Shown: positions 5,082-24,815, counted from the stretch's first letter. The stretch is 64,000 nucleotides of DNA from an uncultured virus (IMG/VR IMGVR_UViG_3300022548_000001) (IMGVR_UViG_3300022548_000001), one strand, 5' to 3'. The notes: generated from the letters alone by a model not told the origin. Numbers and translations: made by a program.

Positions 5082-5894
5082 ATGAATAATTCAAATCCGT
5101 TCGTTTCTTCTCATCATTTTGACGATAATTTGAGGCCGTATACGACGTCGTCAATTGACCACCCTGATTGTCTTTCGACTATTGTTCTTTATACCGACGA
5201 ATTTACCGGATTTAGCTCTTATAATATGAATAAGCAAGGCGTTGCGTATGACGACCCAAAAAATATGACACTTGTACAGGGAATGAGCGTAGCAAGCTCT
5301 CCCGAAGCGGATCTTGGAAAATCGCTTCCACAAGGAATTCCAACGCTTGAAAAACAGGCGAAAAGCGGAAATATGTCTGGTGCCAAATTTTTTGCCATAT
5401 TTAATAATTTTTCTCTTATACAAGTCGAAGAGTCAAAAGACCAGATAGCAAAGCTTCATCAGAATTTTGGGGCGAATTGGAGCCTGTTCTTTTTCGGAGA
5501 ATCTCCGTCTATGTATACGTTTAGCGGAGTTTTTATTGATAGTTGGAATTATCCTTATTATCAAGAATTCATGGTTATGTATGATGTCGCTTTATCAGGA
5601 AGAAAATGTGTTGAAAATAAATATAAAATGAAAATTATTTATGATAATAAAATGATTGGCGGGTATCTTTTAAGAATAAGAATTCTTAATTCCGCGGCGA
5701 ATCCTGGCCAGAAAACATTTGTATTTAATGTTATTGGAAATTCTGAAGATTATATGCGGTATAATCTTACTTTAAAATCTGATAATCTCAGTGTTATGCA
5801 TCCTTCGGCCTTTAATGCGCTGAACAATGGACATCGGGTTCTTCGGCAATATCCGCATATGTTAACGAATCAAAATCTTGAACAGGCGGAATAA
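5082..5894 (+). CDS. Tail tube initiator/baseplate-associated protein (putative)
   Basis: 270 aa, follows the tape measure; FFFGESP..YTFSGVF pattern resembles tube-fold proteins; TAATG-coupled to the next gene. Confidence 0.4.
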   Translation: MNNSNPFVSSHHFDDNLRPYTTSSIDHPDCLSTIVLYTDEFTGFSSYNMNKQGVAYDDPKNMTLVQGMSVASSPEADLGKSLPQGIPTLEKQAKSGNMSGAKFFAIFNNFSLIQVEESKDQIAKLHQNFGANWSLFFFGESPSMYTFSGVFIDSWNYPYYQEFMVMYDVALSGRKCVENKYKMKIIYDNKMIGGYLLRIRILNSAANPGQKTFVFNVIGNSEDYMRYNLTLKSDNLSVMHPSAFNALNNGHRVLRQYPHMLTNQNLEQAE

Positions 5895-8578
5895 TGGCCA
5901 AAAAACAAGCGTATAATTATGAATTTAAGATGTTGCTTGAAGGGATCGCCATTCCTTTTAAGAGCGCTGAAATTGTTTGTACGCCGAACGGTGTTGAATT
6001 TAACGTTAACGTGCCCGTATGCGCGGAGTTATTTGATTTGAAGCCAAAAACAATGGTTCAAATTTTTTTCCGTGAATGGTACGCAAACAACGAAAAATGG
6101 AAAGATAATTCGACTCCGGCATGGCGATTAATGGCCGACGGATTTTTAAGCGCGTTTGTTGTTGGAGAAGATTCGACCGGCGGACGCTCAGTAGCTTTAA
6201 TATGCAGAGATTTCAGAATGGATATTCGAAAATCTCCGGCAGCTCTTGCATACGTTGATCAGGAAGAGATGGTTGGAGAGGTTAGAACTCAATATAGTAT
6301 TCACGGATTAATGCAGCAGATTGTGATTCCAGGTCTTGATGAAAATAAACCCGCGACCCCTGATACAAGAATTTACTCAAATGATCGTTTAATGGATCTT
6401 GGGGCTATGATAGCGCGGATTGCCGGAACATCATACGGTAATATAACGGAAAACGCGGCAAATGGCGGGAATCTTTTAGATAATTGGAAACTTTCCACAA
6501 ACGAAAAGACTGAAGCGGAAATGCAGGCCGAGAGAAGATCGGCTCACCCAAAAAATCCTCAAAAGAAATATGCAAATGGAGGATTGTTTCTTGATGCATT
6601 TATACGAGGATTATGGATGGAAGCTGTTGGCGGGACTACGGCGAATTCCTTTCTCAATAAAAGGTTAAGGGTTGATAAGCGAGTCCTGGTTCCTAGAAAT
6701 TATGCTGGATTTAATTTTTTTCAAAGAAATAATTTTGGCCTTGAGGTTGGAACCGTCGTTATGGGCAACGCCAGATTTTCCAGCCTTGAGGCGGCTATGA
6801 TGAATGTCGCTGGATTATTCTCTGTTCGGGTATATTCATGCAGCACTCCGTCTTTAATATCTCTTCAAAAAAATTCTCCAGGGCTTGAATATGTTCTTGA
6901 TGAAAAAGTGCGTGAATTTATGGTTGAAAAACACGCGGAAGAATTTGGCCAGCCGTTCATGCTGAATGAAACAATGCTTCTTCCCCCATTAGAATTTACT
7001 GCACCGCCGAATTGCAATTTATTTTTCCCCCCTATGTATGATAGGGTAAGCTGGCAATATGATATGGACAGCGATATTACGCGGGGCTATTTTCATTTAA
7101 TAAGTTCGTTGAACGTTCCGGGCGGCAGTGATTTTGGAGAAATTAATTTTCAAATTCCAAACGGCTTATTTAATATGTCCGCGGAAAAAAAGAATAAAAA
7201 ACCACCGTTAACACTTGAAGAAAGATATAAAGGGGTAAGTGTTTATCACGGCTCTGTCGAATATAATTTGGCCGCAGGAGACGTCGTAAGGAATTTTGGG
7301 CTCACTATAACCAATGATAAAGGAAAATTAGTGTTTGCTGATGCGGCGTCAAAAGCTAAAAAAAATGAAAAAGAAGCGCAATCTTCTTCCCCACCTGTCG
7401 GTGGAGGGGAGGACGTGCAATCTGACGCACAATCCGCAATTAATAAAGCAAAAGAAAAGGCCGCCGCTCAATTATCGAAAAAGAAACTGGAATCATTTGA
7501 AAACAATGTAGCGAATGCTTACAAACGCCACGCTGCTATAAAGTACCTTAATACAAAATTTGCCGGCAGAGTTGTTACCGTTGATATGGCGTTTAACCCG
7601 TTTGTTATGTGTGGATTTCCGGGTGCGATTATCAGCGCAAAGAATGAAATTGGAACGAATGTGACAAAAACCATTCTTGGAATGGTTCAGCAAGTGAGTC
7701 ATACTATTTATATAACTGGAGAATCGGCTGAAGCGGCCACAACCGTTATAATGAATAACGCTCGATTTTATGACGAGCCGACCGATCTTGATATGAATGG
7801 AATGCCGTTGTATATGAAAGCGACGAATCCGAAAGACGCCGATTTCTCATTATCAAATTATGAATTTACTAATCCTAACGGAGTTCCCTATTCGGTTCCA
7901 AATGCTCAGCCGGCCGCTCAAGTTATGCCGCAGGAAAATGAATATTTTGATTTGGGAGAAGAAGTGTCTAATCAAAAAGGATATGTATATGTAAAAGATT
8001 TTCTTACTTCAAGCGCCGAGGACGTTGGAAGAGGAAGAGACGAAAATATTTATGTCGATCGATCATATGAACCAAATAGAATCGCTAAATTTTATGATAA
8101 AGTATTTGGTCATAAAACCCCCCATTTTATGATAGGAAATTATATAAAAGAAGACGGTAAACCTGGAAATTTTGTTTATGACACAATGCATGAGGCTTTA
8201 TTAAATCTTGAAAAAAACAATCAATTAATGACTGATTATGAATACTGTATACAATTTGTACGAAGAAATATTTGTTCGGCGAACGCGTTTTATCATGCAA
8301 TACTTGGGCTTTCAAGCGGAGAAATTTCAAAACAATCAGGAATTCAATATGTTAATTATCCCGCAGGGCAATATGACGATGAAGAGCCGATAAAATATTA
8401 TGGCGTTCCAACGGAAAAAATTTCTTCAATACCCAAAAATATTGGATTAAGAGCCGGCGGATTTAGCAGTATACGAGAGTCGTCGCCGGTTACAGCCATC
8501 ATTAAAGAAAGGCGCGACGCTGTTGAAGCGTACTATCGTGCGTTGAAAAATAATGTTACAGGGGTGAAAGATGGATAA
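5894..8578 (+). CDS. Baseplate hub-like protein (putative)
   Basis: 894 aa. LICRD and V.MAFNPF...GFPG...GMVQQVSHTI segments resemble gp27/gpD-type hubs; gene order agrees. Confidence 0.45.
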   Translation: MAKKQAYNYEFKMLLEGIAIPFKSAEIVCTPNGVEFNVNVPVCAELFDLKPKTMVQIFFREWYANNEKWKDNSTPAWRLMADGFLSAFVVGEDSTGGRSVALICRDFRMDIRKSPAALAYVDQEEMVGEVRTQYSIHGLMQQIVIPGLDENKPATPDTRIYSNDRLMDLGAMIARIAGTSYGNITENAANGGNLLDNWKLSTNEKTEAEMQAERRSAHPKNPQKKYANGGLFLDAFIRGLWMEAVGGTTANSFLNKRLRVDKRVLVPRNYAGFNFFQRNNFGLEVGTVVMGNARFSSLEAAMMNVAGLFSVRVYSCSTPSLISLQKNSPGLEYVLDEKVREFMVEKHAEEFGQPFMLNETMLLPPLEFTAPPNCNLFFPPMYDRVSWQYDMDSDITRGYFHLISSLNVPGGSDFGEINFQIPNGLFNMSAEKKNKKPPLTLEERYKGVSVYHGSVEYNLAAGDVVRNFGLTITNDKGKLVFADAASKAKKNEKEAQSSSPPVGGGEDVQSDAQSAINKAKEKAAAQLSKKKLESFENNVANAYKRHAAIKYLNTKFAGRVVTVDMAFNPFVMCGFPGAIISAKNEIGTNVTKTILGMVQQVSHTIYITGESAEAATTVIMNNARFYDEPTDLDMNGMPLYMKATNPKDADFSLSNYEFTNPNGVPYSVPNAQPAAQVMPQENEYFDLGEEVSNQKGYVYVKDFLTSSAEDVGRGRDENIYVDRSYEPNRIAKFYDKVFGHKTPHFMIGNYIKEDGKPGNFVYDTMHEALLNLEKNNQLMTDYEYCIQFVRRNICSANAFYHAILGLSSGEISKQSGIQYVNYPAGQYDDEEPIKYYGVPTEKISSIPKNIGLRAGGFSSIRESSPVTAIIKERRDAVEAYYRALKNNVTGVKDG

Positions 8579-9263
8579 TGAATCGCAAAAAATACTTGAA
8601 TGGCAAAAAAGTAAAAATCCGGTTATTTTTACGGAATTGATGTCTAAATATCAGCCCATTGTCAATTCCGTCGTAAATAAATATAGGACGGTAGGAATTT
8701 CTCCGCCAGTTTTAAAATGTGAAGCCTCCGCTCAACTTGTCAAGGCGTTTAATACGTATAATCCAAAAATGGGTGCCGCACCGTCAACGTATATATGGAA
8801 TCAAATGCAAAAAGTTCAACGAGTCGCCACCGAAAGCCTTTCTTCAGGACATATACCGGAATATAGAAATTTAAAGAAATCCACTTTTTTAACCGTAAAA
8901 ACTAATCTTGAGAATCGTCTTGGATATGAACCGAGCGTGGACGATTTGGCGGATGAATTAAAATGGGATAGATCAGAAGTGGCGAGAATGAACGCTGAAC
9001 TTGGCGGCGAGGTTACCGCTTCTCAGGCTGAATTTGATTTCTATGGAAATGATATACAAAATAAAAGTAAAGATTACGCCCTTGCTGAATATTTATATCA
9101 TGAACTTAAAGGAAAAGAAAAAACGGTAATGGAGCATGTGTTTGGGTTTGGAGGAAAACCTATTTTAAATAATAAAGAAATAGCTAAAAAATTAAATACA
9201 AACGAAATGGCCGTAGTGAGAATGAGAAAGAAATTGGCCGAAAAAATAAAGGAATATCGATAA
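8571..9263 (+). CDS. Phage sigma-70 family factor (FliA/SigB-like architecture)
   Basis: Region 2 (LVKAFNTYNP..G...STY), region 3 (LGYEPSVDDLADEL) and region 4 HTH (NKEIAKKLNTNEMAVVRMRKK). Confidence 0.85.
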   Translation: MDNESQKILEWQKSKNPVIFTELMSKYQPIVNSVVNKYRTVGISPPVLKCEASAQLVKAFNTYNPKMGAAPSTYIWNQMQKVQRVATESLSSGHIPEYRNLKKSTFLTVKTNLENRLGYEPSVDDLADELKWDRSEVARMNAELGGEVTASQAEFDFYGNDIQNKSKDYALAEYLYHELKGKEKTVMEHVFGFGGKPILNNKEIAKKLNTNEMAVVRMRKKLAEKIKEYR

Positions 9264-11780: not shown

Positions 11781-14756
11781 ATGATTAATTTTTATCAATT
11801 TTTAAGAAAAAAATTTTCCGAATATTCAGAATCAAGCGGCCAACAAGGCACTGCAATTGACGATATAGCGATTAAGCCGACGGGTCTTATTCTTGCCGAT
11901 TTTAGTAATGCGCTTGTTCGTACAAGACGTATTAATAATATTAATGAGTGGAAGAATATGACCGACGAAGAGCTTGACGCGTTCGGGGCTAAATTTTTCA
12001 AGCCGCGTATTATTGGGGCGTTTGCAAGCGGCTTTGTCAGAATATGGTTTGATTATAAATTTGATTTTGAAATATCTGAAAATTTTAGGGCGATTTCGGG
12101 CTCATCATTGAAATACCGTGCAATCCAGCCCGGATATATAAGCAAAAATTCATTTAGAAAAGCGTCTGACGGATTTGGGGCTTATTACGTTGACGTTCCA
12201 ATTATAGCCGAGTCTGAAGGAAGTTCATATAATCTTGAACCAGGGCGTATTACGTTCATTTCAGGGGTTGATTTTCAATATAAAACTGTTACCAATCCTG
12301 AAAAAATTCAAAATGGGTTAAATCGAGAAACTAACGAACAATATTATAAAAGGCTTCGATATTCAATAAATGACGGAAGCATGATGAATATTCGGAGTAT
12401 GTATTCAAGGCTTCCTGAGTTTTTTCCGTCAATTATATCAATGTATGTCGCAAATCCTGGAAACAAATATATGACTCGCGATCTTGTTTCCGGAGAAGAT
12501 TTATCCAGCCAGTCAAAAACCGCGTCATACCTTGGGAAAACCCAAGGAAATACTATGGTAAAACACGTGGCCTTTTATGGATCATTTCCCCCGGAAGCAT
12601 GGAGCAAATACGCCGATTATCTTGCCGGGCAATCAATTCCTTCCGCTTTTGATCGTCCATTGACTATTGAGGCGAGCGATAATACCCAAATGGATCCGGC
12701 GTATCATGGGTATCCTCTTGATCAAGAGGCTACGAATGAAATGTATGCAGGCTTATTTTTTAATGATTATAGCGGATATATGCAATATTCAACGCAAAAT
12801 TTGTTTGATATTTATGAAGAAAAAATAGGACTTGATCCGGTTATTGTTCCAAACACCAGCTGGATGTATGGGTCCCATTTAAGAAATAGCGGTGAATTTG
12901 GAGATTTTGTTGATGGAGTCGGCCCCATTGACGTTATGTCATTTCAAAATAATATTATTAAACTTGCCGGGGGATGTCAAGAAGCCATTTCTGTGTCAAA
13001 AAATATTAAAAAACGCATTAATGTAAAAATGACTGGATCATTTACGTGGCCGGAGACCGCCGAGTCTTTTAATAGTAATCTTCAATTTATGATTGGGGGC
13101 AAAAACGATTTTGTTGTTGATGCTTTCAGTGGAATCGGATTCGGTATTCGTCTGACCGGCGAATACGTTGAAGGGTCTTCTGATAAAAACGCAATTATAT
13201 ATATAGCTCATTCTGAAAGATATGGATCGGCCCAGGTTTTTGCTGCAAGCGAAGATATTATACCTGGATCAGGGGTTCCGTCTCCTGGGCAACATATATC
13301 TGTCGGTGATATGAGCGCGCTCGCCGAAACATCGTTTAATATTAAGCCGGGGGAACCATATTCGTTTGAATTTATTCTATACGACGATCTTAGGGTGACT
13401 TTGTATATCGAAAAAGAAAACCCCATTGGAAGCGAACCTGACAATGAGAAATTTTTCCGCTTTTCCTTATCTTCACAGCCCCTGAAATTATTTAAACAGG
13501 AGCTTTTAAATCCTTTTAGCTCCCATTATGGCACAATGATGAAGGTTACTCTTGAAACAAAATCAAAATCGCCCGCCGATATATGGGAGGTAGCCGATCT
13601 CAACGTATTTGACGTTGATGCTCATAAAAGCAATATGCTTTTTGCGATTGACGTCGGTAAAATGGAAGACCCCCTGACAATTTATATGAGGGCTTTTGGG
13701 CGAGGAGCTGTTCAAGGGCTGGCGTATGAAGGGTATGAAGCATATATTTGGGATAAAGAAGCGCATTCACCGGCCTCAAGTGCTCATTCTGAGCTCACAA
13801 ATGGCGGGTGGTCGCCGCTTGATGGTATATCAAACTCCGACGGTTCCAAACAGCTTACAACCGGACTGTTAAGTCATACCATTCAGAATTCAGATCGATA
13901 TATTGTTAATAGTCGATATGGAAAAATGATTTTTATATTGGTTCAAACGACAGGATCTTCAAAGGCTTCTATAAAATATGGCGGCGACTTTTCTGATGAT
14001 ATTGTTTCTACGCTTAAAGTTGATTATATCAAGGTTGTCAGCCGAGCCTCTCAATTGTATCACGCGAACAATAAAGCCGACATTTATGTGGTAACATATC
14101 AAAATTCTGAACAGCCGGAAGTCGTCACTTCTGTTCTTACAAAAACAAGTTTTGACTCGTTTTTTGAAATGAATGCTTATAATGGCTGTAAAATGCCTGT
14201 TGTGGAAATTATTGCTATTTTTTCTGGGGGCGCCGCGGAAGAAGTGAGCGCGATAGCGCCAACCGAATATTCCATTATTTTAAGCGGTGATGAATTACAT
14301 TCATCGTCTAAAGAAACGGTATTAATCGCTCTGAGAGACTCGTCAATTAATACAATTACGGTTCAATATCGTGCTTTCCCTATTATAAGCCAAATTCAAG
14401 AATTTTTTGACGGAACTGATTATGGAAAAATTTTTGGGGATATTCTTATTAAACATAAAATTCCAGTTAATATTTCTTTCTCGTTGTCTTGCACCAGCGA
14501 ATTGAATACCGAGCAAATCATTGATGAAATTAGAAAATATTTTGATAAAAACGACGGTCGAGTTTTTTCCGTAAACGAAATGGTCAGATATATTTATGAT
14601 AACGGAATCGCCACATCCGTAAAAGAACCTGTTGTCGTTTCATATTCAAAATATAATGATGAATGGCAAATTGAGTCCGGTGAATTTACTGATTTGTTAA
14701 CAATCAAAGAAATCGAGTTTTTTAGAATTCAAGATTTGACGGTGCAAAAATTGTAA
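11781..14756 (+). CDS. Baseplate J-like (gp6/gp47-like) wedge protein with a large insertion
   Basis: N-terminal ELD..G...R..G..ASG.V, VP.IAE..G..YN...G.I and N...I.NG.NRET.EQY..RL motifs. Confidence 0.8.
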   Translation: MINFYQFLRKKFSEYSESSGQQGTAIDDIAIKPTGLILADFSNALVRTRRINNINEWKNMTDEELDAFGAKFFKPRIIGAFASGFVRIWFDYKFDFEISENFRAISGSSLKYRAIQPGYISKNSFRKASDGFGAYYVDVPIIAESEGSSYNLEPGRITFISGVDFQYKTVTNPEKIQNGLNRETNEQYYKRLRYSINDGSMMNIRSMYSRLPEFFPSIISMYVANPGNKYMTRDLVSGEDLSSQSKTASYLGKTQGNTMVKHVAFYGSFPPEAWSKYADYLAGQSIPSAFDRPLTIEASDNTQMDPAYHGYPLDQEATNEMYAGLFFNDYSGYMQYSTQNLFDIYEEKIGLDPVIVPNTSWMYGSHLRNSGEFGDFVDGVGPIDVMSFQNNIIKLAGGCQEAISVSKNIKKRINVKMTGSFTWPETAESFNSNLQFMIGGKNDFVVDAFSGIGFGIRLTGEYVEGSSDKNAIIYIAHSERYGSAQVFAASEDIIPGSGVPSPGQHISVGDMSALAETSFNIKPGEPYSFEFILYDDLRVTLYIEKENPIGSEPDNEKFFRFSLSSQPLKLFKQELLNPFSSHYGTMMKVTLETKSKSPADIWEVADLNVFDVDAHKSNMLFAIDVGKMEDPLTIYMRAFGRGAVQGLAYEGYEAYIWDKEAHSPASSAHSELTNGGWSPLDGISNSDGSKQLTTGLLSHTIQNSDRYIVNSRYGKMIFILVQTTGSSKASIKYGGDFSDDIVSTLKVDYIKVVSRASQLYHANNKADIYVVTYQNSEQPEVVTSVLTKTSFDSFFEMNAYNGCKMPVVEIIAIFSGGAAEEVSAIAPTEYSIILSGDELHSSSKETVLIALRDSSINTITVQYRAFPIISQIQEFFDGTDYGKIFGDILIKHKIPVNISFSLSCTSELNTEQIIDEIRKYFDKNDGRVFSVNEMVRYIYDNGIATSVKEPVVVSYSKYNDEWQIESGEFTDLLTIKEIEFFRIQDLTVQKL

Positions 14757-14881: not shown

Positions 14882-15508
14882 ATGAGCACTGGAATTTACG
14901 ACAATTTTTCAGGCGGAACATACGATCCGTGGTGGAATGACGCATTTAAATCCTGGCCTCTTCAACAATATCCGCCAGGATCTGGAAATTATGTTTCTGT
15001 CGCAGGCGGAGATTTGACGGCAGCCCTTATGCCTAGTGGCGCATCAATTTCTGGAGATTTTGTTCTTGAATCGACATTTCAACTTGGCCCAATAGATTCG
15101 CCGCCGGCACAAAACGAATCGGTTCATTTATTTTTATATAAATCATCAGACAATACCATATTATGTAATATAAATTGGCATAATAGTTATGTTCGTTGGT
15201 ATTGGGGCAATAGTGATAAAGATATTCGTTTGGAGCTGTGGTCTGCATATAAAGAAATAAAAGTTAAACTTGTTCGTATTGGCCCGACTATTACCGCGTA
15301 TTGGTGGAATTCTGTAACATCATCATGGGAGGCTATGTCTAATCCTATTACATATGCAGATCCTGTTTATATTATTGTAAATGGCGCTGATTATAATGGA
15401 TTTAGTGCGTTTAATTTTGAAGCGGATTCCGGATTTCCATATTCTAGCGGCTTAAAAAGATCTCAATTGTATGGGCAATTTATGTTTCAAATCGTAGGAC
15501 AATTATAA
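14882..15508 (+). CDS. Beta-sandwich (LamG/concanavalin-like) virion protein; paralog of the domain in 18863-19687
   Basis: Shares ISG..V.E, W...K.IK.K..RI...Y and FEA..G.PYS motifs with the downstream ORF. Confidence 0.45.
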   Translation: MSTGIYDNFSGGTYDPWWNDAFKSWPLQQYPPGSGNYVSVAGGDLTAALMPSGASISGDFVLESTFQLGPIDSPPAQNESVHLFLYKSSDNTILCNINWHNSYVRWYWGNSDKDIRLELWSAYKEIKVKLVRIGPTITAYWWNSVTSSWEAMSNPITYADPVYIIVNGADYNGFSAFNFEADSGFPYSSGLKRSQLYGQFMFQIVGQL

Positions 15509-15520
15509 AGGCGGGGTTTT

Positions 15521-16270
15521 ATGTACGAAGGCATTCAGAATACGGACAAATGGTTTCCAGTTATTCTTGTTGATTCAAATAATAACGGGGTAACGGGGAA
15601 AACTGTGAGTAATATCACGGTTACGTATCATTTTGAGGCAAGCGAAAGCAGAACGACATATTCTCCAAGCGCGTCGGACTGGAAAGAGGCCGGCGACGGA
15701 GAATATTGGCTTCGGATTGGCGAGTCGGAATTTACGCAGACAGGGAAATATCAACTTTCAATCGCAAGCTCCGGATGCCAAACCCATAGAATCCCTATTG
15801 AGGTAAAACAATATTCATTTGACGATAATGGTATAAAAATTAATTTTATTTATGATAGAATCGGAACGCCGATTGATTTTGGAAGCGGTGCAAATCTTTC
15901 AAACAATATGGTTGATATATATACATTATCGTCTACAGTCAATTCAAAAATTGGTTTCCCAATCGATCTTGGAGACGGATCGACTCTCGCCGATAATTTT
16001 ACTTCCATAGCCGGGAAAACCTCTGGTGCTTCGTCGTTTAATCGAACGTCTGATTCTCTTGAGGCGATATCCGACATGGAATCAGGCAATCTGAGCGCCG
16101 CAACCCTGAAAGATATTCTATTTAACCGAGAGGTAACCGGTCGACACGCAAATGGGAAGCCATCAGTTATAATCGCCGGGACCGGATCAAATCAAGTTCA
16201 AATTCATACAACTCTTGATACGGCGCCGGGAATGGAAGAATATATCAATAAAGAAGAAATAGTTTCATAA
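15521..16270 (+). CDS. Virion structural protein (Ig-like N-terminus, short internal repeat)
   Basis: 249 aa; IG.PID.G.G..L..N...I repeated twice. Confidence 0.45.
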   Translation: MYEGIQNTDKWFPVILVDSNNNGVTGKTVSNITVTYHFEASESRTTYSPSASDWKEAGDGEYWLRIGESEFTQTGKYQLSIASSGCQTHRIPIEVKQYSFDDNGIKINFIYDRIGTPIDFGSGANLSNNMVDIYTLSSTVNSKIGFPIDLGDGSTLADNFTSIAGKTSGASSFNRTSDSLEAISDMESGNLSAATLKDILFNREVTGRHANGKPSVIIAGTGSNQVQIHTTLDTAPGMEEYINKEEIVS

Positions 16271-16271
16271 T

Positions 16272-17804
16272 ATGTATCAATCAGGTTATCTTGAATCTGA
16301 TCTATGGCTTGAAGGGTTTATAGATCCACATGTGTGGTATATTAAGCTCGGTCCGCCGGATATTCAATCCGGCTCATACGATCAATCGTCTTTAACGATT
16401 ACCGCGCATGGTGATAATTTTTATCTCTATCCAGGGGTTAATGGCAAATTATATTATCGAAAACATGAAGACTCATGGGTTGAAATTCCGATTATTATTG
16501 TATGGAATAACGCGCAAATAATAGGGAAGATTTTTTCAAATCTTGAGATTGGATATTATGATTTAAAAGTAATTAGAGACGATTTGCAGGAAGACGTTCT
16601 TCTTAACGCTTTTTTAGTCGCTCCGCCTGGGCCGAGCGTTTATTATGTAGACGCCGAAGCGGTATCAGGCGGCGACGGTACGGAATCAAGCCCATGGAAT
16701 ATATTACAATTAAAATCATATTTTAAGAGCGACCCTGGGTATTTTCCAATAAATGGAGATATTATAAACGTTAAGGGTAATATCGCGGCTGAAACATTAA
16801 ATCCATATACTTTTTTGGTTTCCAACGTTGGTAATATAACAATAATCATTCAGGCGTGGAATAAAACAATACATGGAATGTTTACGGTGACAATGCCAAA
16901 AAGCGGGGTTAATCTTTTTCAAATCGCGCCAGAATCTTTTAATGTAACACTTGATATTCGTGATCTTGTTATATTGCCGCAATGGATATCCGGACCTGGC
17001 GCCTCTCCTCTTTCAATTATCAAATCTCTTGGCGGTTCAACAGGAATACATCATATCATTCTTCGTAATTGTATGATTTTAAGCGATTATGACGTATATA
17101 TGTCATCCGGTCCGGAAAATGTTAAAATTGATATATACGGATCTAATATATCGCTTAAAGACGCAAAATTATATATTAATGCGTTTTCAAATTCATTAAA
17201 TATTTATGATTCCGTCGTTAATTTGCAGGGGTCGGCGTCAATTCATGATAATGGAAGTCATTTAAATTGGAACCATTGCGAATTTAATAAAAATTCCTCT
17301 TTTATTCCTGGCGTTAAAAATGAATGTACTTTTGAAAATATCAAATTAAATGAGATGCCGACGTCGATATGGCCTGAATATTTTAATGAAAATGATTTTA
17401 ATTATTGGATATATAATATATCAAACGCAGGAAACGGGACGGCATTTTGGCTGGCGAATAATATTTCTCTTGATATTCGAGGCGGTATTCGGCGCGGCAT
17501 AGGAGCGTTCAGGTTTGACGCTTATAATTATTATGTTGATGGAGAAAAAACGGTTTCCGGGGATGGGTCTGAATCAAATCCATTTACGTTTAATCAATTT
17601 AGAAATTATTTTTGTGATTCTCTTGGCGATCCATGCAATGTATCGCCAACAGGATACGACACGTTTTATATGAAAAATATTTTTACACCAATTGATAATT
17701 TTTTTATAAAGATACATAAAAATATCGGCGGATATGTTATTATTAAATGCCACAATATAGGAACCAATAAAGCGTGGCTTATTGAAACAAAAGAATGTTT
17801 GTGA
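16272..17804 (+). CDS. Structural protein with one complete and one truncated beta-helix-like domain
   Basis: YYVD....GDG.ES.P motif occurs twice; the first domain ends RGIGAFRF and the second is cut by the stop. Confidence 0.55.
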   Translation: MYQSGYLESDLWLEGFIDPHVWYIKLGPPDIQSGSYDQSSLTITAHGDNFYLYPGVNGKLYYRKHEDSWVEIPIIIVWNNAQIIGKIFSNLEIGYYDLKVIRDDLQEDVLLNAFLVAPPGPSVYYVDAEAVSGGDGTESSPWNILQLKSYFKSDPGYFPINGDIINVKGNIAAETLNPYTFLVSNVGNITIIIQAWNKTIHGMFTVTMPKSGVNLFQIAPESFNVTLDIRDLVILPQWISGPGASPLSIIKSLGGSTGIHHIILRNCMILSDYDVYMSSGPENVKIDIYGSNISLKDAKLYINAFSNSLNIYDSVVNLQGSASIHDNGSHLNWNHCEFNKNSSFIPGVKNECTFENIKLNEMPTSIWPEYFNENDFNYWIYNISNAGNGTAFWLANNISLDIRGGIRRGIGAFRFDAYNYYVDGEKTVSGDGSESNPFTFNQFRNYFCDSLGDPCNVSPTGYDTFYMKNIFTPIDNFFIKIHKNIGGYVIIKCHNIGTNKAWLIETKECL

Positions 17805-17818
17805 ATGGATAATTGAAT

Positions 17819-18664
17819 ATGCCATACACATCGTGGGTAAGAAAAACATCATCGGCGGAATTTCAACCAAGAAGATTGGCGAGAGCTGTTTCACACAAAG
17901 GTTATTTATATTTAACCGGCGGGCGGGCTAATGAAGACGCCTTTAGCTATAGTGACGTATGGAGAAGTTCCAATGGAGTGTCGTGGACGCTTCTTACAAA
18001 CAATCCCGGTTGGTCCGCGCGAGCCGCCCACGGCATTGTTTCATTAGGTGATTATTTATATCTTTTTGGGGGAACTGAAACGTCATTAGTATGGAAAAAT
18101 GATTGCTGGAAAAGTAAAGATGGTATTACATGGATTCCAACGAATTTGTCCTGTCCGTGGGGAGGAAGGCATGAGTTTGGGTATGCCGTATTAAATGGTA
18201 GAATTTATATATATGGAGGGTTTGTTAATTATGAAAGATCAAATGATGTGTGGAGCAGTTCTGATGGAATATCATGGATAAATCATGGAAACGCTTCATG
18301 GTCTCCAAGAAGAGAAATGGGGAGCTGTTCTTTTGATAACAGAATATGGTGTATCGGCGGAGACGTATCATTTATGACATTCATTAATGACGTATGGTAT
18401 TCATATAACGGATCTGTATGGCATCAAGCTACGTCAAGCGCAGAATGGGGAGCACGCAGAGAACATGCAGCATTTTCATTTGATAATAAATTATGGATTG
18501 TTGCCGGGACAGGCTATGATGGAATAAAAAATGATACATGGAATTCTATAGATGGAATTACATGGAATCAATATATAACCGATCCAACATACTCTGCAAG
18601 ATATGATGCAGCCGTCGCGTTACATAATAATGCCGTATATGTAATTGGAGGGAGTACGGAATAA
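17819..18664 (+). CDS. Kelch-repeat beta-propeller protein
   Basis: Six R..H/..ly..GG...NDVW.S.dG..W repeats; ATG at 17819 preferred to TTG at 17813. Confidence 0.85.
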   Translation: MPYTSWVRKTSSAEFQPRRLARAVSHKGYLYLTGGRANEDAFSYSDVWRSSNGVSWTLLTNNPGWSARAAHGIVSLGDYLYLFGGTETSLVWKNDCWKSKDGITWIPTNLSCPWGGRHEFGYAVLNGRIYIYGGFVNYERSNDVWSSSDGISWINHGNASWSPRREMGSCSFDNRIWCIGGDVSFMTFINDVWYSYNGSVWHQATSSAEWGARREHAAFSFDNKLWIVAGTGYDGIKNDTWNSIDGITWNQYITDPTYSARYDAAVALHNNAVYVIGGSTE

Positions 18665-18861
18665 TGGCTTATCTTAATGACGTATGGTCTATAGCGCTTG
18701 ATGTAACGGAAAGCCCTTCTCCGCCGCCGCCAGAGCAGAAAAAATTTGTTATTATTCAAATAGGCAGTGAAGCGTATTTAAAAAAAATAATTATCAAAGA
18801 TTTTATTTTAACACAAAATACAAATGCTCTTGATAATATTATAACCGTTGAAAGAGTGTAA
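18664..18861 (+). CDS. Small structural peptide (Kelch-like strand, Pro/Ser linker, beta-helix slice)
   Basis: 65 aa, TAATG-coupled; MAYLNDVWS..SPSPPPP..IIQIG...IIIKDFIL. Confidence 0.6.
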   Translation: MAYLNDVWSIALDVTESPSPPPPEQKKFVIIQIGSEAYLKKIIIKDFILTQNTNALDNIITVERV

Positions 18862-18862
18862 A

Positions 18863-19687
18863 ATGAGCCTCGCGACATGGATTAAAAATTATTTCTATCT
18901 TGGCGAGCCTATAGATCCAGAATGGGCAAACCAGTCATATCTTGGTCTTTATACTTCGTCAGATTTGGTAACGGTATTATCGTTGATTTCTTCAGATCAA
19001 AAAAACGTACTGTTAAGTAATATCTCTGGAAATATGGTAATTGAATTTGAAATGAAGATATTAGATTTATTGCCGTCAGGAAATGATCCCAAATTACAAC
19101 TTATTCAAAATTCTTCGGTATTAATCGAGGTATGGTGGGCAAATGGAGCGTTGAACGTTGGAAGAAGCGGAAATTCGACATTGGTAACAAATACGTTTTT
19201 TGATTGGGCGCCACTTAAATCAATAAAATTTAAAATTGAAAGAATAAATGATAGTTTTAAAGTTTATTATTATAATTCAGGATGGATAGATACTGGGCAT
19301 TCTGAAATAAACTCTGGGGATGTGCATATAATATCAATTAATGGCGATCCGGCCGCTCATGGCTATACATATTTTGATTTTGAGGCTAATGGCGGCCTTC
19401 CATATTCCGCATCAGCGTCTGCGTCAATGTCTTCATCATATAGCGAATCAGCAAGCCCGTCTCCGCCTTTTGGGTTTGGAGTGATAAATATAGAAATAAA
19501 AAACGCTATGATATATTGCAAATCGGCGCATATAGATTTTTCTCCGCCCGATTCTGATATTACGCTTGTTGGCATGGGATTAACAATAAAAACTCCAGGA
19601 GTATTTCGTACATATTCAGATCCATTGGATACCGTATCCAGACTTGATGATTCGGTGGTAAAGGCGTCACAGCTTTCCGATGTGTAG
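18863..19687 (+). CDS. Beta-sandwich domain, Ser/Pro linker and beta-helix slice
   Basis: Paralogous to 14882-15508; ATG at 18863 just after the upstream TAA. Confidence 0.55.
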   Translation: MSLATWIKNYFYLGEPIDPEWANQSYLGLYTSSDLVTVLSLISSDQKNVLLSNISGNMVIEFEMKILDLLPSGNDPKLQLIQNSSVLIEVWWANGALNVGRSGNSTLVTNTFFDWAPLKSIKFKIERINDSFKVYYYNSGWIDTGHSEINSGDVHIISINGDPAAHGYTYFDFEANGGLPYSASASASMSSSYSESASPSPPFGFGVINIEIKNAMIYCKSAHIDFSPPDSDITLVGMGLTIKTPGVFRTYSDPLDTVSRLDDSVVKASQLSDV

Positions 19688-19693
19688 GTTATT

Positions 19694-22306
19694 ATGTCTT
19701 TTATTTGGAATCATGTAGAAACAAACAGGCCGCAAAGCGATTTAACAGTTGTTACCGCTCACAATTGTACATTTGAATCAGAATCGTCAACCAGCCTTCT
19801 TCCTTCCACATTTGACGCTGTTAATTTTCAAGAATCCAACTTTACTTATTATCTTTTTGGATTTTTAAATTTAGGATCAGGAAGCGCGGTATGGGCGGCG
19901 AATGATTATAATTATGGAATATCAGGAACTTTAAGGGCCGGGATAGGATTCTTTTATTTTTATGAGGCTTACCCTCCGTTCACTTCAGATTTTTCAATTG
20001 TTGGGGAAGAAAAATGTTTTGAAAGTGATTTTGAAAAGATCAACTTTTGGGACTATATAAGTACTTTTTGGAATTTTCTTGACGACTCTTCGCGTGATAT
20101 GGTTGAAAATCTATGGTTTGGCATGGTAATAGCCGGCGGGTCTTTAACCAAAAAAGGTCTGAGATTTTTGACGGCGATGAACCCGCAAGCGCCAAATATT
20201 TGCGTATTTGAGGATTACTTTGATTTACAAGTCAGTCCAATGCTTTCTCGCCCGGTTTATCTTGATCCTTCAGAAGAATCGCCAAAAACAATTATTAATC
20301 CTATCGGCACCGTTCTTATTGAGCCGGAATATGATGGGTTTACTCCGATATATCACGATCTAATAGAAATTACCGGAAATGATTATCAAAAAATTCGACA
20401 TCTTGGAAAACGTTTAAGCCCATCATCGCGCATAATTGGCGAATGTTACGTTGTCATTCAACCGAAAGACGCGTCTATTGAAAAGAAATATTTTCTTGTT
20501 ACAAATTTCCTTTCTTCAGAAGAAGCGTACGATAGGCCGGCGTCCGCTATTATAAAACAAGAAGGGAAGGGTTCTCTTAAGCTCATTGGCGTTGATACAA
20601 CCGACATATCTCAATATCGAGTAACAATACAGGACACGGGTTTGACAAGTATTACATGGACGTCGAACGCTTTATATATAACTGTTAACGGTTCAAGCCC
20701 GAACCAAATTCAAGATATTATAAACGCTCTTCCTGGAACGGGTATTCCATGGGCTCATATTATTGACATATCAGCTCCAAATTTAAAAGACGCCCCGTTA
20801 ATTAATAATGTCGATTTTGAGGATTTATATAATTATGTTAACGCCCAAACCGGCGTTGGACGTTATTACCCCGACTCAGGAAAGGTCTGGAAATGGTATG
20901 ACGGCTGGAATGATTCAAACGGAACGATTGGAAACCCTTCTCAAGGCGAATATACCGAAAGCAAATCAAAATTTAAATATATGATAGAGGTGTCTGGCGG
21001 GCTTGCATATCTTAAATCTGGAGCGTTTTCAATTTATTTGACTACAGGCAAGTCTTATGATATAGGAAAAGAAATTATTGATATTCCCTATTTGACGGCT
21101 GGAATAGAAAACGAAGAGATATATTTTAAAAAAGATATTGATTATATTTTTAATAAACAAGTTCTTGAATTTTTTGTCGATATATTTGCGGAAAAAGGCG
21201 TTAAAGATAATACGATTCTGTATTGTAAAAAAACTCCAATTATTGAACAGTACCTTTTTGAACAACACGGCGGCCTTGTTAATATTAACGACTGGACTCA
21301 ATATAATTATAAAAATATTTCAGGAAAGGCGGCGATTAATACTCTCTTAAGTGCCATGATGAATATCAGCTCGCTTAAGGAATATGAAAAAGCCCTTAAT
21401 ATTTATTATGGGCTTCCTGTGTCTCCTGCAAAATGCAGGGTTGTTGGATTATTTGAATCGTATGGATATAAAATTATTGAAATATCGTCTCACACGATTA
21501 CTGTAGAAATTAAACCAAGGGAAGAATTGCATCCATTCATTCAAAATAATTGCGTTATGATTAATGATGATGGAAAATCTTACATTGTCAGCGGGGTATT
21601 TTCAAATCGGTCCCTTGGAAAGTTTAATGTAGTCGATCCTGACGGATTGAAAATTGGAGACAGGTTATATGTTAAATTAAATAATAAATTTAAACTTGAA
21701 AATGTCGTACATACTGGACCATATATTGATGTTTGGATTCGTGAAGGGTATAAGCCTATTAAACATGTTATTGATACCGTTCATAATATGTATGGAACAT
21801 GGCCGGAGCTTTTAATTCATGGAACGGATAAATGTGGAACCAATTTCGACGGATTATATCATGCTGTTGATGCGTATCATCCGGAAGGAATGGCTGGTGG
21901 TATTGTAAGAATTAAAATTTATAAACCATCAGATGGCGAAGAGCCGATGTATAACGATTATATTGAATCCACAATAGAAGGGATTAACGCCGGATTCGCT
22001 CATATATGCTGGCCTACGCATAAATTTTTATATTTATATATAATAGAAGAAAAACGGCTTTATAGAGCTTATATGGACGCCCCAATAGATACTATATATG
22101 ACAGCGGCGACGCCCTTGAACAATATCAAATAATTTGTAGAAACGTATCTATTATGAATAATAATTTATTTAAAAATTGGTGGCAATATCGCAATTTTAG
22201 AAAGTCGCCGGGAATCAATTCATTATCTAATATTATTGAAATGGTTTTTGCCGATCCTTCCGGAGAATTTGGGCAATATTTTCCTTCCGGATTGTATCGT
22301 GATTAG
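19694..22306 (+). CDS. Large baseplate/tail structural protein
   Basis: 870 aa. The N-terminus is the end of a beta-helix-like domain (LRAGIGFFYF); FW.YI..FW..L and LNIYYGLP segments suggest a wedge-type subunit. Confidence 0.45.
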   Translation: MSFIWNHVETNRPQSDLTVVTAHNCTFESESSTSLLPSTFDAVNFQESNFTYYLFGFLNLGSGSAVWAANDYNYGISGTLRAGIGFFYFYEAYPPFTSDFSIVGEEKCFESDFEKINFWDYISTFWNFLDDSSRDMVENLWFGMVIAGGSLTKKGLRFLTAMNPQAPNICVFEDYFDLQVSPMLSRPVYLDPSEESPKTIINPIGTVLIEPEYDGFTPIYHDLIEITGNDYQKIRHLGKRLSPSSRIIGECYVVIQPKDASIEKKYFLVTNFLSSEEAYDRPASAIIKQEGKGSLKLIGVDTTDISQYRVTIQDTGLTSITWTSNALYITVNGSSPNQIQDIINALPGTGIPWAHIIDISAPNLKDAPLINNVDFEDLYNYVNAQTGVGRYYPDSGKVWKWYDGWNDSNGTIGNPSQGEYTESKSKFKYMIEVSGGLAYLKSGAFSIYLTTGKSYDIGKEIIDIPYLTAGIENEEIYFKKDIDYIFNKQVLEFFVDIFAEKGVKDNTILYCKKTPIIEQYLFEQHGGLVNINDWTQYNYKNISGKAAINTLLSAMMNISSLKEYEKALNIYYGLPVSPAKCRVVGLFESYGYKIIEISSHTITVEIKPREELHPFIQNNCVMINDDGKSYIVSGVFSNRSLGKFNVVDPDGLKIGDRLYVKLNNKFKLENVVHTGPYIDVWIREGYKPIKHVIDTVHNMYGTWPELLIHGTDKCGTNFDGLYHAVDAYHPEGMAGGIVRIKIYKPSDGEEPMYNDYIESTIEGINAGFAHICWPTHKFLYLYIIEEKRLYRAYMDAPIDTIYDSGDALEQYQIICRNVSIMNNNLFKNWWQYRNFRKSPGINSLSNIIEMVFADPSGEFGQYFPSGLYRD

Positions 22307-22763: not shown

Positions 22764-24815
22764 ATGAAAGCGTTAGTTAAAAAAGGAATTGCTGATTATT
22801 CAATTCTTGGTCATAAAATATCAAATGATTATAATAATCCAAGTAATTCTCTTGAACATATTCATTTTATATGGGCGACAAATGGAAAATTTGATATTGC
22901 AAACATGAGTCGAGTTTTAGTTGATAGATCGTCAATACCAGGAATGACAAATGGAGATATTATTTGTAAAAGATTGAATATAGGAAGTGGATATACATGG
23001 ATTTCCAATGGTATTTATTCACAAGGAGGATTGCAGGCATCAGGCCCAATATTTACTTCTGGAGATATTTATTCAGAGGTTGGAAGAATATATGTTAATC
23101 ATGGATATATTAGCGCTATTGGTTCAGGGCAGTATTCCACTGGAAGTCTAAATGGAGCTTCATTGAATTGTACTGGTCCTGCAAATATGAAACAAGTTTT
23201 AGTTGATAGGGTGCCGCCAATACCAGGAACAATTGATGGAGATATTATCTGTAGAAGATTAAATGTAGGAAATAGTACGCCGTGGATTTCCAATGGTATT
23301 TATTCACAGGGCGGGTTGGGAACGGATGGGTCAATAATTACTTCCAACGGATATATCAGCGCTATTGGCCCAGGACAGTATTCTACTGGAAGCCTAAATG
23401 GAGCTTCATTGAATTGTACTGGCCCTGCAAATATGAAACAAGTTTTAGTTGATAGATCGTCAATACCAGGAATGACAAATGGAGATATTATTTGTAAAAG
23501 ATTGAATATAGGAAGTGGATATACATGGATTTCCAATGGTATTTATTCACAAGGAGGATTGCAGGCATCAGGCCCAATATTTACTTCTGGAGATATTTAT
23601 TCAGAGGTTGGAAGAATATATGTTAATCATGGATATATTAGCGCTATTGGTTCAGGGCAGTATTCCATCGGGAGTCTAAACGGAGATTCATTGAATTGCA
23701 TTGGTTCTGCAAACATGGGTCGGGTTTTAGTTAACAGGTCGCCAATAGAAGAGATGACTAACGGAGATATTATTTGTAAAAGATTGAATGTGGGGAGCGG
23801 CTCGACATTGATTTCCAATGGTATTTATTCACAGGGCGGGTTGGGAACGGATGGGTCAATAATTACTTTCAACGGATATATCAGTGCTATTGGGCCAGGA
23901 AATTATCCTCCTGGAAGCTTGCACGGGTCTTTATTGAATTGTGCTGGCGATGCAAGTATGAAAAAAATTTCAGTTTATAGATCGCCAATACCAGGGCTGA
24001 CAGATGGAGATATTATTTGTAAAAGATTAAATGTTGGGAGCGGCTCGACATTGATTTCCAATGGTATTTATTCACAGGGCGGGTTGGGAACGGATGGGTC
24101 AATAATTACTTCCAACGGATATATCAGTGCTATTGGGCCAGGAAATTATCCTCCTGGAAGCTTAAATTGTTCCAGTATATATTGCACTCGCACCGCTGAA
24201 GTTGGATCTAATATGAATAATGATAATGATATTGCTTTAGATTGTGGAGCTAATTTTGTTTATAGTGACATATCACATGCTGTAGATAAGCCTAGGAATT
24301 TAAAGCAGGCAGCATTATATTATGAAACAAGCATACCATCTAATAATACTTCTAGTAATAATTTCAAAAGTATTGTAAAAAGAATTTTACCAGACAGATT
24401 TACTGGAAATGGAATGAAAATATATGAAATATTTATTGAATTATTTAATACTGATCCCATAACTGGTAGTCAGATTTATGAAATACCTTTAAACGATTTA
24501 AAAATTGATACGAATAATGCATACTCTATACATTGTGATTTACATGGAAAATCTTATGTTAATAACAGCACTATAGAAGTAATAGTAAGATTTCTAAGCC
24601 TTGTTTTAAATAGGGATTTTCCATCAAACCATATGTATGCATCAGAAGGCTCATGGACAGGAAATGAATTATTTTCTACTTTTGCAGGTTCAGGACTTAA
24701 TTTTGGAATAGTAAACAAAAAATTTGTTATTACTTCAACGCCGTCGCCGCCAAATCATATTAATAGTAATGGCAAATTAACTGTTCATGGGAAAATTGTA
24801 ATTCATTATTTCTAA
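22764..24815 (+). CDS. Tail-fibre-like protein with five 81-94 aa tandem repeats
   Basis: GDIICkRLN.G...ISNGIYSQGGL...GYISAIG.G.Y..GSL repeated five times, followed by a unique C-terminal domain. Confidence 0.65.
   Translation: MKALVKKGIADYSILGHKISNDYNNPSNSLEHIHFIWATNGKFDIANMSRVLVDRSSIPGMTNGDIICKRLNIGSGYTWISNGIYSQGGLQASGPIFTSGDIYSEVGRIYVNHGYISAIGSGQYSTGSLNGASLNCTGPANMKQVLVDRVPPIPGTIDGDIICRRLNVGNSTPWISNGIYSQGGLGTDGSIITSNGYISAIGPGQYSTGSLNGASLNCTGPANMKQVLVDRSSIPGMTNGDIICKRLNIGSGYTWISNGIYSQGGLQASGPIFTSGDIYSEVGRIYVNHGYISAIGSGQYSIGSLNGDSLNCIGSANMGRVLVNRSPIEEMTNGDIICKRLNVGSGSTLISNGIYSQGGLGTDGSIITFNGYISAIGPGNYPPGSLHGSLLNCAGDASMKKISVYRSPIPGLTDGDIICKRLNVGSGSTLISNGIYSQGGLGTDGSIITSNGYISAIGPGNYPPGSLNCSSIYCTRTAEVGSNMNNDNDIALDCGANFVYSDISHAVDKPRNLKQAALYYETSIPSNNTSSNNFKSIVKRILPDRFTGNGMKIYEIFIELFNTDPITGSQIYEIPLNDLKIDTNNAYSIHCDLHGKSYVNNSTIEVIVRFLSLVLNRDFPSNHMYASEGSWTGNELFSTFAGSGLNFGIVNKKFVITSTPSPPNHINSNGKLTVHGKIVIHYF
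22913..23667 (+). repeat. 227-bp exact direct repeat (22913-23139 and 23441-23667)
   Basis: Base-by-base identity, offset 528 bp. Confidence 0.9.
23763..24163 (+). repeat. 158-bp near-identical direct repeat (23763-23920 and 24006-24163)
   Basis: Three mismatches seen, offset 243 bp. Confidence 0.85.

Follow-up and report, generated by a model that had tools for sequence, protein, structure and literature searches.

A second β-helix of a phage fibre protein encoded across four collinear open reading frames

The fibre genes of an uncultured hot-spring phage (IMGVR_UViG_3300022548_000001) raise the question of why recognizable parts of one β-helix lie on separate neighboring open reading frames (ORFs), and whether these parts could still form a domain together. 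The window, by which we mean the whole 64,000-nucleotide stretch analyzed, is a baseplate and fibre module. The second β-helix of its fibre protein is encoded across four collinear ORFs, designated A, S, L and B (Table 1). A sequence-only reading of this DNA had placed four slices of the helix, in order, in the C-terminal part of A, the C-terminus of S, the C-terminus of L and the N-terminus of B. The translated ORFs bore out this order, and each motif quoted for the β-helix copies and slices was found at its given place.

Table 1. Coordinates of the fibre ORFs, their domains and the slices of the second β-helix
Feature	Position (nt)	Strand	Residues	Description
ORF A	16272-17804	+	510 aa	Ig-like domain, intact helix copy 1, slice 1
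Ig-like N-terminal domain of A		+	~24-117	AF2 model, VIA-align
β-helix copy 1 of A, intact	16623-17522	+	~118-417	AF2 model, VIA-align
Slice 1 of copy 2, in A	17523-17792	+	418-507	3 residues and TGA beyond slice
ORF K	17819-18664	+	281 aa from ATG 17819	Kelch β-propeller add-on; ORF listing starts at TTG 17813
ORF S	18664-18861	+	65 aa	Kelch-blade strand, Ser/Pro linker, slice 2
Strand with NDVW motif, in S		+	1-14	Kelch blade
Linker of S		+	15-25	Ser/Pro
Slice 2, in S	18739-18858	+	26-65	BLASTP to P0016
ORF L	18863-19687	+	274 aa	Add-on domain, Ser-rich linker, slice 3; stop TAG
Add-on of L		+	1-~183	Jelly-roll/ConA-like, weak structural lead
Linker of L		+	~184-204	Ser-rich
Slice 3, in L	19475-19684	+	~205-274	BLASTP to P0016
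ORF B	19694-22306	+	870 aa	Slice 4, then fibre body
Slice 4, in B	19694-19990	+	1-~99	z 23.4 against copy 1; P0023 match
Free-standing paralogue of L add-on	14882-15508	+	208 aa	Without linker, without slice

The four slices and the predicted fold

The AF2 model of the whole ORF A had a pLDDT of 77.5. In VIA-align comparisons, residues 26-117 superimposed on 1qhp_A (Z 9.9), and copy 1 (residues 118-417) superimposed on the right-handed β-helices 5gkd_A (Z 14.0, rmsd 3.5, 200 residues aligned), 5olq_A (Z 13.3) and 1ru4_A (Z 13.2). Judged from the model, copy 1 is predicted to adopt the right-handed parallel β-helix fold. When the full-length model of A was searched with Foldseek, no match passed E 0.001, the best being 1.2e-3 or weaker.

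The sequence-only reading had taken the slices for a second copy of this domain, and likeness to the intact copy was clear for slices 1 and 4 but not for slices 2 and 3. In Smith-Waterman alignments evaluated against 300 shuffles, slices 4 and 1 reached z values of 23.4 and 6.5. The value for slice 3 was weak though the alignment was collinear (z 2.5), and that for slice 2 was not significant (z 0.4), its top local alignment lying off the proposed position. Within the window alone, therefore, two of the four slices are similar to copy 1 beyond chance. The middle slices are established because relatives with a contiguous domain match both of them. By BLASTP, S 27-65 corresponds to residues 511-549 of P0016 (51% identity, E 2e-11) and L 210-273 to residues 557-619 of the same protein (53% identity, E 1e-14), in which residues 415-504 align with A 418-507. 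B 4-63 matched residues 631-690 of P0023 (55% identity, E 2e-17), where slice 4 is contiguous with slice 3.

When fused, as in the relative locus L003, slices 1-3 are predicted with high confidence to form one compact β-helix. The AF2 model of the fused slices had a pLDDT of 93.3 and a pTM of 0.89, and matched 1ru4_A (Z 13.2, rmsd 3.5, 182 of 217 residues aligned) and 7v6m_A (Z 12.9). Model residues 1 to 212 aligned with the N-terminal ~200 residues of solved β-helices, and the breaks of the window fall at two loops of this model, one spanning residues 89-96 and the other 135-140. In copy 1, the part corresponding to slice 4 was modeled poorly (pLDDT 35-56), so slice 4 may be either integral to the helix or a separate cap.

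Right-handed parallel β-helices are found in pectate lyases and phage tailspikes (1ru4, 5olq, 5gkd, CBA120 TSP3/TSP4), and the models point to a likeness to these, with Z of 12-14 for copy 1 and 11-13 for the fused slices 1-3. Unlike the known β-helices, the present proteins matched no sequence family. A, S, L and B had no Pfam match at E up to 0.1, whether to β-helix and pectate-lyase families or to any other, no PHROG match and no sequence relative in the PDB. ORF B also had no match among GenBank phages by tblastn. No solved β-helix is known to be divided along its axis into several separately encoded chains, and the literature searched offered none.

Fused and divided forms in relatives

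Relatives in IMG/VR came from alignment-based scans; single-protein scans with A or B gave none. The slice HMMs were built including the window's own pieces and were used solely to annotate other proteins. Fused homologues in related phages, whose existence had been suggested as a check on the sequence-only reading, were indeed present. P0016 (locus L003) carries slices 1-3 within a single ORF, and P0023 carries slices 1-4 fused behind an A part. A single polypeptide of P0023 runs from the Ig-like domain through both helices to a long B body, and P0016 is partly so arranged. On sequence comparison, the window holds a split gene whose collinear fragments are contiguous in relatives.

Between the fused form and the four-piece form of the window lie several intermediate arrangements. 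Counting the window, eight of the eleven A-family proteins stop with slice 1, two with slice 2 and one with slice 3. Relatives at 46-55% identity are broken at these three points as well, and the ends of the pieces are constant to one or two residues across lineages. Extra domains, wherever they occur, come before a slice and are joined to it by a Ser/Pro/Glu-rich linker. In L001, a GLUG-like domain (labeled by eye) and an SES linker precede slices 2 and 3 in a single ORF. One ORF of L012 joins an L-type add-on to slice 2 through an SES linker, and a second add-on with a linker comes next. P0047 has a propeller-like domain (again labeled by eye), a linker and slice 3, and an N-terminal domain and linker precede slice 4 in P0010, P0011 and L002. 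Small stand-alone proteins of slices 1-2 or 1-3 also occur (P0036, P0043, P0038 and P0046). The proposal of an evolved gene fission is well supported by these fused, two-piece and three-piece versions and by the recurring break positions. In the A-family tree, two of nine inner forks were supported and seven were not. A supported clade (99/98) joined four forms ending in slice 1 with the form ending in slice 3, which suggests more than one change of state in the family. Because the tree is mostly unsupported, fissions and fusions are not placed in sequence here.

Seven relatives of B that we read (P0002-P0008, 54-68% identity) start 2-6 residues before the W-x-x-VETNRP motif. Elsewhere, division extends beyond the helix. 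In L004 the break sits after slice 4. In L009, four ORFs share out the counterparts of B residues 113-277, 428-471, 476-760 and 764-865, and an N-terminal add-on with a Ser- or Thr-rich linker is present on two of these ORFs. The pattern of break, add-on and linker cuts the B body as well in more distant relatives. A fibre body in pieces could function only through assembly of those pieces.

Add-on domains, junctions and rival explanations

As described in the sequence-only reading, the middle slices sit behind linkers, which are Ser/Pro-rich in S and Ser-rich in L. The add-on of L had structural neighbors in the Atlas at TM 0.57-0.65, so that the label "lectin-like" for this module is a structural lead only. 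It shares 42% identity over 185 aa with the add-on in L012, whose copy carries slice 2. The free-standing paralogue upstream matched L at 29% identity over 146 aa (BLASTP, E 3e-9).

ORF K matched Kelch_1 in five stretches (E 8.4e-26) and Kelch_KLHDC2_KLHL20_DRC7 (E 1.6e-24) in Pfam, with Kelch_6 and Kelch_4 also exceeding the cut-off. Reading the repeats by eye, we found five full blades and the first half of a sixth. The frame of K stops after ..VYVIGGSTE, and the NDVW strand of the same blade lies in ORF S in another frame. The propeller is therefore not complete within one polypeptide, blade 6 being cut between strands. The add-on ORF of L012 has a slice 2 to which that of S is 57% identical, and S ends (..TVERV) at the same place as P0019, P0021 and L012. 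K and S correspond to two frames of a single ORF type of relatives (add-on, linker, slice). Tethering of the Kelch domain is doubtful, because Kelch and slice 2 lie in different frames here. A pattern scan of IMG/VR with K gave no match, and in this limited search no fusion of Kelch, linker and slice turned up among the relatives examined; ORF S had no match (E up to 0.01) among the longer of 5.8 billion proteins, which counts as weak evidence.

The break between K and S might be an inactivating mutation that left a dead or untethered Kelch domain, or it might be a fifth working split, in which the strand in S completes blade 6; we regard the odds as even. Loss is favored by L012, L001 and P0030, in which add-on, linker and slice 2 form a single ORF, and by the position of the break between strands of a blade. 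Against it, the stop and start overlap exactly (GAATAATGG), and an ordinary junction between genes, at 5894, has the identical sequence. The contigs of two sequencing runs (X1 and X2) bridge the K|S junction without differences, and those of a third (X3) cover it via overlapping short contigs only. The N-terminus of K also has a strand-like TSWVRK, which on our reading could close the propeller, so that complementation of the blade is conceivable.

A broader alternative is that the slices are merely historical, add-on genes having been inserted and a host fragment left over on each, with no helix rebuilt and the add-ons acting elsewhere or as soluble proteins. The stand-alone proteins of slices 1-2 or 1-3 fit this possibility, as they indicate that the unit can occur outside a fibre. 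We nevertheless consider it unlikely. The pN of the slices was 0.21-0.38 against a saturated pS of 0.64-0.85. For comparison, pN was 0.26-0.27 for the body of B and 0.29 for the N-terminal part of A, so that the slices are as constrained as the remaining fibre. The ends of the pieces are also fixed within one or two residues across lineages. Moreover, eight of the eleven A proteins would stop partway through a helix, and the fibre body of L009 would be four useless parts.

Less probable still is translational recoding, by which read-through or frameshifting would yield one polyprotein with the add-ons as loop insertions. Every junction has a stop closely trailed by an ATG, as noted from the sequence alone, the distance being 0-14 nt. 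A ends with TGA at 17802-17804 and the first ATG of the Kelch ORF is at 17819; the TAA of K (18662-18664) and the start codon of S overlap as TAATG; the stop of S is the TAA at 18859-18861, and L begins with ATG at 18863; L ends with TAG at 19685-19687 and B begins at 19694 in an unchanged frame. Recoding could be entertained at this last junction, as L and B share a frame with TAG and two codons between them, and the layout GTG TAG GTx xAT ATG is also found in L001. However, the other three junctions shift frame in differing directions, in L003 the frame changes between A' and B', and no slippery heptamer was seen at the junctions by reading. TAG is an ordinary stop, which also terminates B and two other genes, and TAATG is a normal gene junction in this genome, with other cases at 5894 and 9263.

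Reassignment of TAG was rejected on stop use (35 TAA, 6 TGA and 4 TAG). A gene interrupted by introns was likewise rejected. Between 15000 and 23000, Rfam models gave no group I or II intron even at E up to 1, only a single chance-level sRNA match within B, and the inserts are in frame with the downstream slice. Terminator-like sites were not enriched (7 against a shuffle mean of 6.3), and none lay in the gaps between these genes.

Decay of a dying gene by frameshift or nonsense changes, or misassembly, is scarcely credible. In its favor, the K|S break lies inside a Kelch blade and was seen only in this lineage. Against it, short-read contigs from three studies (X1, X2 and X3) had no other letters and no indels over 17600-19800, the breaks after slices 1, 2 and 3 are shared with relatives of 46-55% identity, each downstream piece has its own ATG just past a stop, and pN was far below pS. 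Synonymous sites being saturated, dN/dS was computable in 6 of 15 comparisons, at 0.10-0.38. Indel errors and dN/dS near 1 had been named beforehand as what would overturn the reading, and neither appeared in these contigs and comparisons. Summed word depth of the contigs over the junction region reached thousands. X1 and X2 may be the source of the window DNA, and X3 is from a separate study; run X4, which covers 17772-18181 only, was left out.

A putative assembly in trans and known systems

Assembly in trans is the best reading of these observations. We consider it probable that helix 2, split in four proteins, is re-formed without covalent links and displays cargo on the new N-termini. The fibre, of a tail or baseplate, would have a shaft with two tandem right-handed β-helices, and its ancestral-type form may have been a single-chain fibre as in P0023. 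In the lineage of the window, helix 2 is cut at inter-strand loops into four pieces, each encoded as a protein of its own. The pieces would restore it non-covalently by stacking of rungs, thereby linking B to A. At each new N-terminus, which would face outward, a flexible Ser/Pro-rich linker would bear an additional domain that probably binds glycans. In the window, the jelly-roll add-on of L would be such cargo, and so, with less certainty, would the Kelch propeller. We infer that the pieces are present in the virion and that the add-ons serve in binding. The helix might then act as a junction box with plug-in sockets, at which the phage adds or swaps binding modules.

More tentatively, and with slightly less than even confidence, we propose a reusable way for adsorption structures to grow, whereby a cassette of stop, start, binding domain and linker enters a fibre loop, the fragments complement each other, and the sockets are few, fixed and interchangeable. 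The cassette would land in frame and bring a Ser/Thr/Pro-rich linker, and complementation could proceed through β-helix rungs or other fibre parts. The sockets may be interchangeable in that one family of add-ons is attached to slice 3 in the window but to slice 2 in L012. Such a process could give several binding domains per fibre and a range from fully fused fibres to four or more pieces.

If the pieces assemble, they would constitute a natural split-protein docking system derived from a single β-helix. This could explain how host-binding modules are added or swapped without disturbing the fibre, and would imply that a β-helix withstands several breaks along its axis. For annotation, it would mean that a short ORF or an unusual C-terminal tail within a fibre module might be part of one domain and not a pseudogene. 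With relatives graded from fused to two, three and four pieces, the steps of gene fission could be compared directly.

We found no description of a fibre β-helix encoded in pieces in the literature, chiefly that outside subscription journals, and drew on other split or modular systems for comparison. Fractured genes with split inteins reportedly consist of collinear gene fragments with an ORF between them. The piece ends here, unlike those of split-intein genes, are linkers and ordinary β-strands, and A, S, L and B had no Pfam match to intein or Hint domains at the breaks. According to a report on NrdA of Aeromonas phage Aeh1, that protein is split by an inserted mobE, and its fragments assemble without RNA or protein splicing (PMC3045599). 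The likeness lies in a gene that is contiguous in relatives and cut into collinear ORFs by an inserted gene. The insert in Aeh1 is the homing endonuclease mobE, unfused to the fragments, and short new tails drive assembly. In contrast, the inserted ORF here is fused via a linker to the downstream fragment, a small domain is cut up to three times, and the product is a virion fibre, not an enzyme. No homing endonuclease was recognized between the pieces, K being a Kelch protein and S and L having no Pfam or PHROG nuclease match.

The branched receptor-binding complexes of Ackermannviridae, of which we take TSP1-4 of CBA120 to be an example, offer a second comparison. In a paper on them, proteins are hung on one another, with several specificities and exchangeable modules, and docking is described for dedicated N-terminal domains of whole tailspikes (PMC11414711). 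Sequence profiles in Pfam and PHROG gave no match to docking domains of this type in our proteins. Here the putative docking element is instead a C-terminal slice of a shared β-helix with N-terminal cargo, and single-chain versions exist in relatives. In S and L the conserved shared element lies at the C-terminus, and in B at the N-terminus, a layout unlike that of the tailspikes.

Division of one beta-helix domain among four ORFs

Five consecutive ORFs, A, K (the Kelch ORF), S, L and B (the fibre body), form the split region. The sequence-only reading had held that A contains an intact beta-helix (copy 1) and the start of a second, helix 2, whose remaining slices follow in order in S, L and B (slices 1 to 4 in A, S, L and B, respectively). 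The motifs quoted in its favor were all found in the sequence. Compared with copy 1, slices 4 (z 23.4) and 1 (z 6.5) were clearly similar and slice 3 weakly so (z 2.5), while slice 2 showed no similarity (z 0.4). The claim of a split domain was thus half proven from the window alone.

Positions, junctions and family matches of the split-fibre ORFs and the baseplate gene
Feature	Position	Strand	Junction with next ORF, or match
Baseplate gene	11781-14756		Baseplate_J Pfam E 2.6e-6; PHROG baseplate wedge subunit E 9.8e-21
A	16272-17804	+	TGA, ATG 14 nt downstream
K	ATG 17819, end 18664	+	TAATG stop-start overlap
S	18664-18861	+	TAA, single A, ATG
L	ATG 18863, end 19687	+	TAG, six bases, ATG; in frame
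B	19694-22306	+

At the sequence level, the relatives proved that one beta-helix domain is split over the window ORFs, and the fused homologs expected in related phages do exist. Eight of the eleven A-family members, including the window, end 2-6 residues past the ..IETK end of slice 1, two (P0019 and P0021) extend through slice 2, and one (P0016, from locus L003) takes in slices 2 and 3 without intervening sequence. A search with P0016 against 1.84 billion representatives gave 41 hits, among them P0023, in which an A-type N-terminus is followed by slices 1, 2, 3 and 4, all contiguous; the record breaks off within slice 4, probably because the contig ends there. BLASTP mapped the window pieces in order onto these contiguous proteins (S 27-65 to P0016 511-549, E 2e-11; L 210-273 to P0016 557-619, E 1e-14; B 4-63 to P0023 631-690, E 2e-17). 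The B family comprised ten relatives at 41-68% identity. The seven that were read (P0002-P0008, 54-68%) start 2-6 residues ahead of a W-x-x-VETNRP motif, implying that the B N-terminus at slice 4 is old and conserved.

The AF2 model of A (11-row alignment, pLDDT 77.5) showed an Ig-like sandwich followed by a long series of short strands. Right-handed parallel beta-helices superimposed well on residues 118-417: 5gkd_A (Z 14.0), 5olq_A (Z 13.3), 1ru4_A (Z 13.2) and CBA120 TSP4 (Z 12.0). Foldseek on this model was weakly suggestive by itself, and the slice-4-like end of copy 1 was poorly modeled (pLDDT 35-56). For slices 1-3 of L003, which are fused in nature, AF2 gave a very confident model (28-row alignment, pLDDT 93.3, pTM 0.89), which matched over its entire length the N-terminal ~200 residues of the fold (1ru4_A, Z 13.2, residues 40-244 of 400). 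This fits with slice 4 supplying further rungs or a cap. The window breaks map to loops at residues 89-96 and 135-140 of the L003 model, between strands of one compact domain.

Inserted domains, linkers and the Kelch ORF

Whatever lay between the pieces was always built alike: after a new start came a foreign domain, then a linker rich in Ser, Pro, Glu or Thr, and then the next slice. At locus L001, the A counterpart stops after slice 1 and is followed by a 618-aa ORF with putative GLUG-like repeats (our label), an SES linker and slices 2+3, and then by the B counterpart. A putative GLUG-like domain also accompanies slices 2+3 in P0030, a propeller-like domain (labeled by eye) precedes a linker and slice 3 in P0047, and in P0010, P0011 and L002 slice 4 and the B body come after an N-terminal domain and a long SES linker. 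At L012, where the A counterpart again stops after slice 1, the next ORF joins an add-on of the kind found in L to an SES linker and slice 2; a second such add-on has a long linker and runs off the contig. These genes are a tandem paralogous pair (L012:2651-4656, 45% mutual identity), each with an SES-repeat linker. The slice-2 add-on of L012 and the slice-3 add-on of the window share 42% identity over 185 aa (E 4e-39), implying that cargo and socket are freely combined. In L006-L008, small stand-alone proteins of slices 1-3 lie immediately ahead of B.

This grammar of break, add-on and linker extends beyond the helix. In L004 the break falls after slice 4. In L009 the B body is spread over four ORFs collinear with window B (residues 113-277, E 4e-32; 428-471, E 7e-4, weak alone; 476-760, E 2e-55; 764-865, E 4e-26), two of which have, at their start, an add-on domain joined to a linker rich in Ser or Thr. 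One cassette combines a LamG-like domain (labeled by eye) and a Ser-rich linker of ~400 aa; in the other, a Thr-rich linker follows a beta-helix-like domain. This region (L009:9874-15457) also has an unrelated ORF of 171 aa among the four, and the layout of L010 is identical.

K is a Kelch propeller (Pfam E 8.4e-26) whose frame stops mid-blade, in the blade read as the sixth. S opens with the next Kelch strand (NDVW) and continues into the linker and slice 2; in relatives the equivalent of K and S is a single ORF. At the break, stop and start overlap exactly in GAATAATGG, and the covering runs show no sequence differences there. The break might be a functional split, the fifth, with S completing the blade and thereby holding K, or a mutation that freed or killed the Kelch; we consider the two about equally likely.

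Proposed assembly and its alternatives

We infer that helix 2 is assembled from separate pieces. The pieces in A, S, L and B would be separate products, probably of coupled translation, and the helix would be rebuilt through rung stacking, which would link B to A and also display the N-terminal add-ons on flexible linkers. TAATG overlaps occur at three gene junctions, at 18664 and, between ordinary genes, at 5894 and 9263; those at 5894 and 18664 share the identical 9-mer GAATAATGG. This suggests that coupled translation is the rule in the structural block.

Recoding, which would instead yield one single chain, is unlikely because the frame relations differ from junction to junction and from relative to relative. 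Stop codon use in the window was normal, no intron RNA was found around the split ORFs, and terminator-like sites were not commoner than in shuffles, with 0 in the gaps between split-helix ORFs. Gene decay was rejected, since slice pN against L001, L003 and L012 (0.21-0.38) is the same as pN in the B body and in the N-terminus of A, at a distance where synonymous sites are saturated (pS 0.64-0.85). Assembly error was rejected on contigs, not raw reads, which had 0 other letters and 0 indels over 17600-19800 in three studies, two of which may be the source of the window DNA, the third being run X3 (contig word depths summing to thousands). Long contig pieces bridged junctions 17804, 18861 and 19687; junction 18664 was bridged in runs X1 and X2, and its coverage in X3 came solely from short contigs that overlap.

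Among known cases, the nearest are NrdA of phage Aeh1, a split protein whose gene is cut by a homing endonuclease and whose pieces assemble via new tails (PMC3045599), and, in Ackermannviridae, branched complexes in which whole tailspikes dock by N-terminal domains (PMC11414711). In contrast to both, up to three cuts fall here within one small domain, the inserted ORF runs on into the fragment downstream of it, searches of the window inserts turned up no nuclease family, and the pay-off is apparently the display of extra putative binding domains. Our literature search found no account of a fibre beta-helix encoded in pieces. We rated the split helix as belonging with gene fission and trans assembly, and with modular receptor-binding complexes, both known kinds.

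Genomic setting

The window is an uncultured-phage block of large structural genes, tightly packed and all on one strand. The split-helix ORFs lie a short way downstream of the baseplate gene, a position usual for tail fibres in myovirus gene order. The majority of the remaining window products had no match in Pfam or PHROG. Near-identical DNA came only from hot-spring metagenomes. L001 and L002 are genome-collection contigs with the phage module, and their titles present them as MAGs, one from a Thermoplasmatales archaeon and one from a Chitinophagales bacterium. The 168-kb contig of the two looks like phage DNA binned into a cell genome, so the MAG label does not fix the host.

Within the structural block, a 230-aa product (8571-9263) matched a PHROG RNA polymerase sigma factor (E 7.7e-18), and L009 has a sigma-like ORF at the equivalent gene position. 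The 683-aa product of 22764-24815 consists of about six tandem repeats of ~95 aa (..DGDIICKRLN.G.G...ISNGIYSQGGL..), its family matches being limited to two weak PHROG ones. The gene ahead of A (15521-16270; L001:4866-6575; L012:1-1137) has conserved ends and a middle of highly variable length, with Gly-rich or IGxPxDLGxG-type repeats; its products are 249 aa in the window, 569 aa in L001 and over 379 aa in L012.
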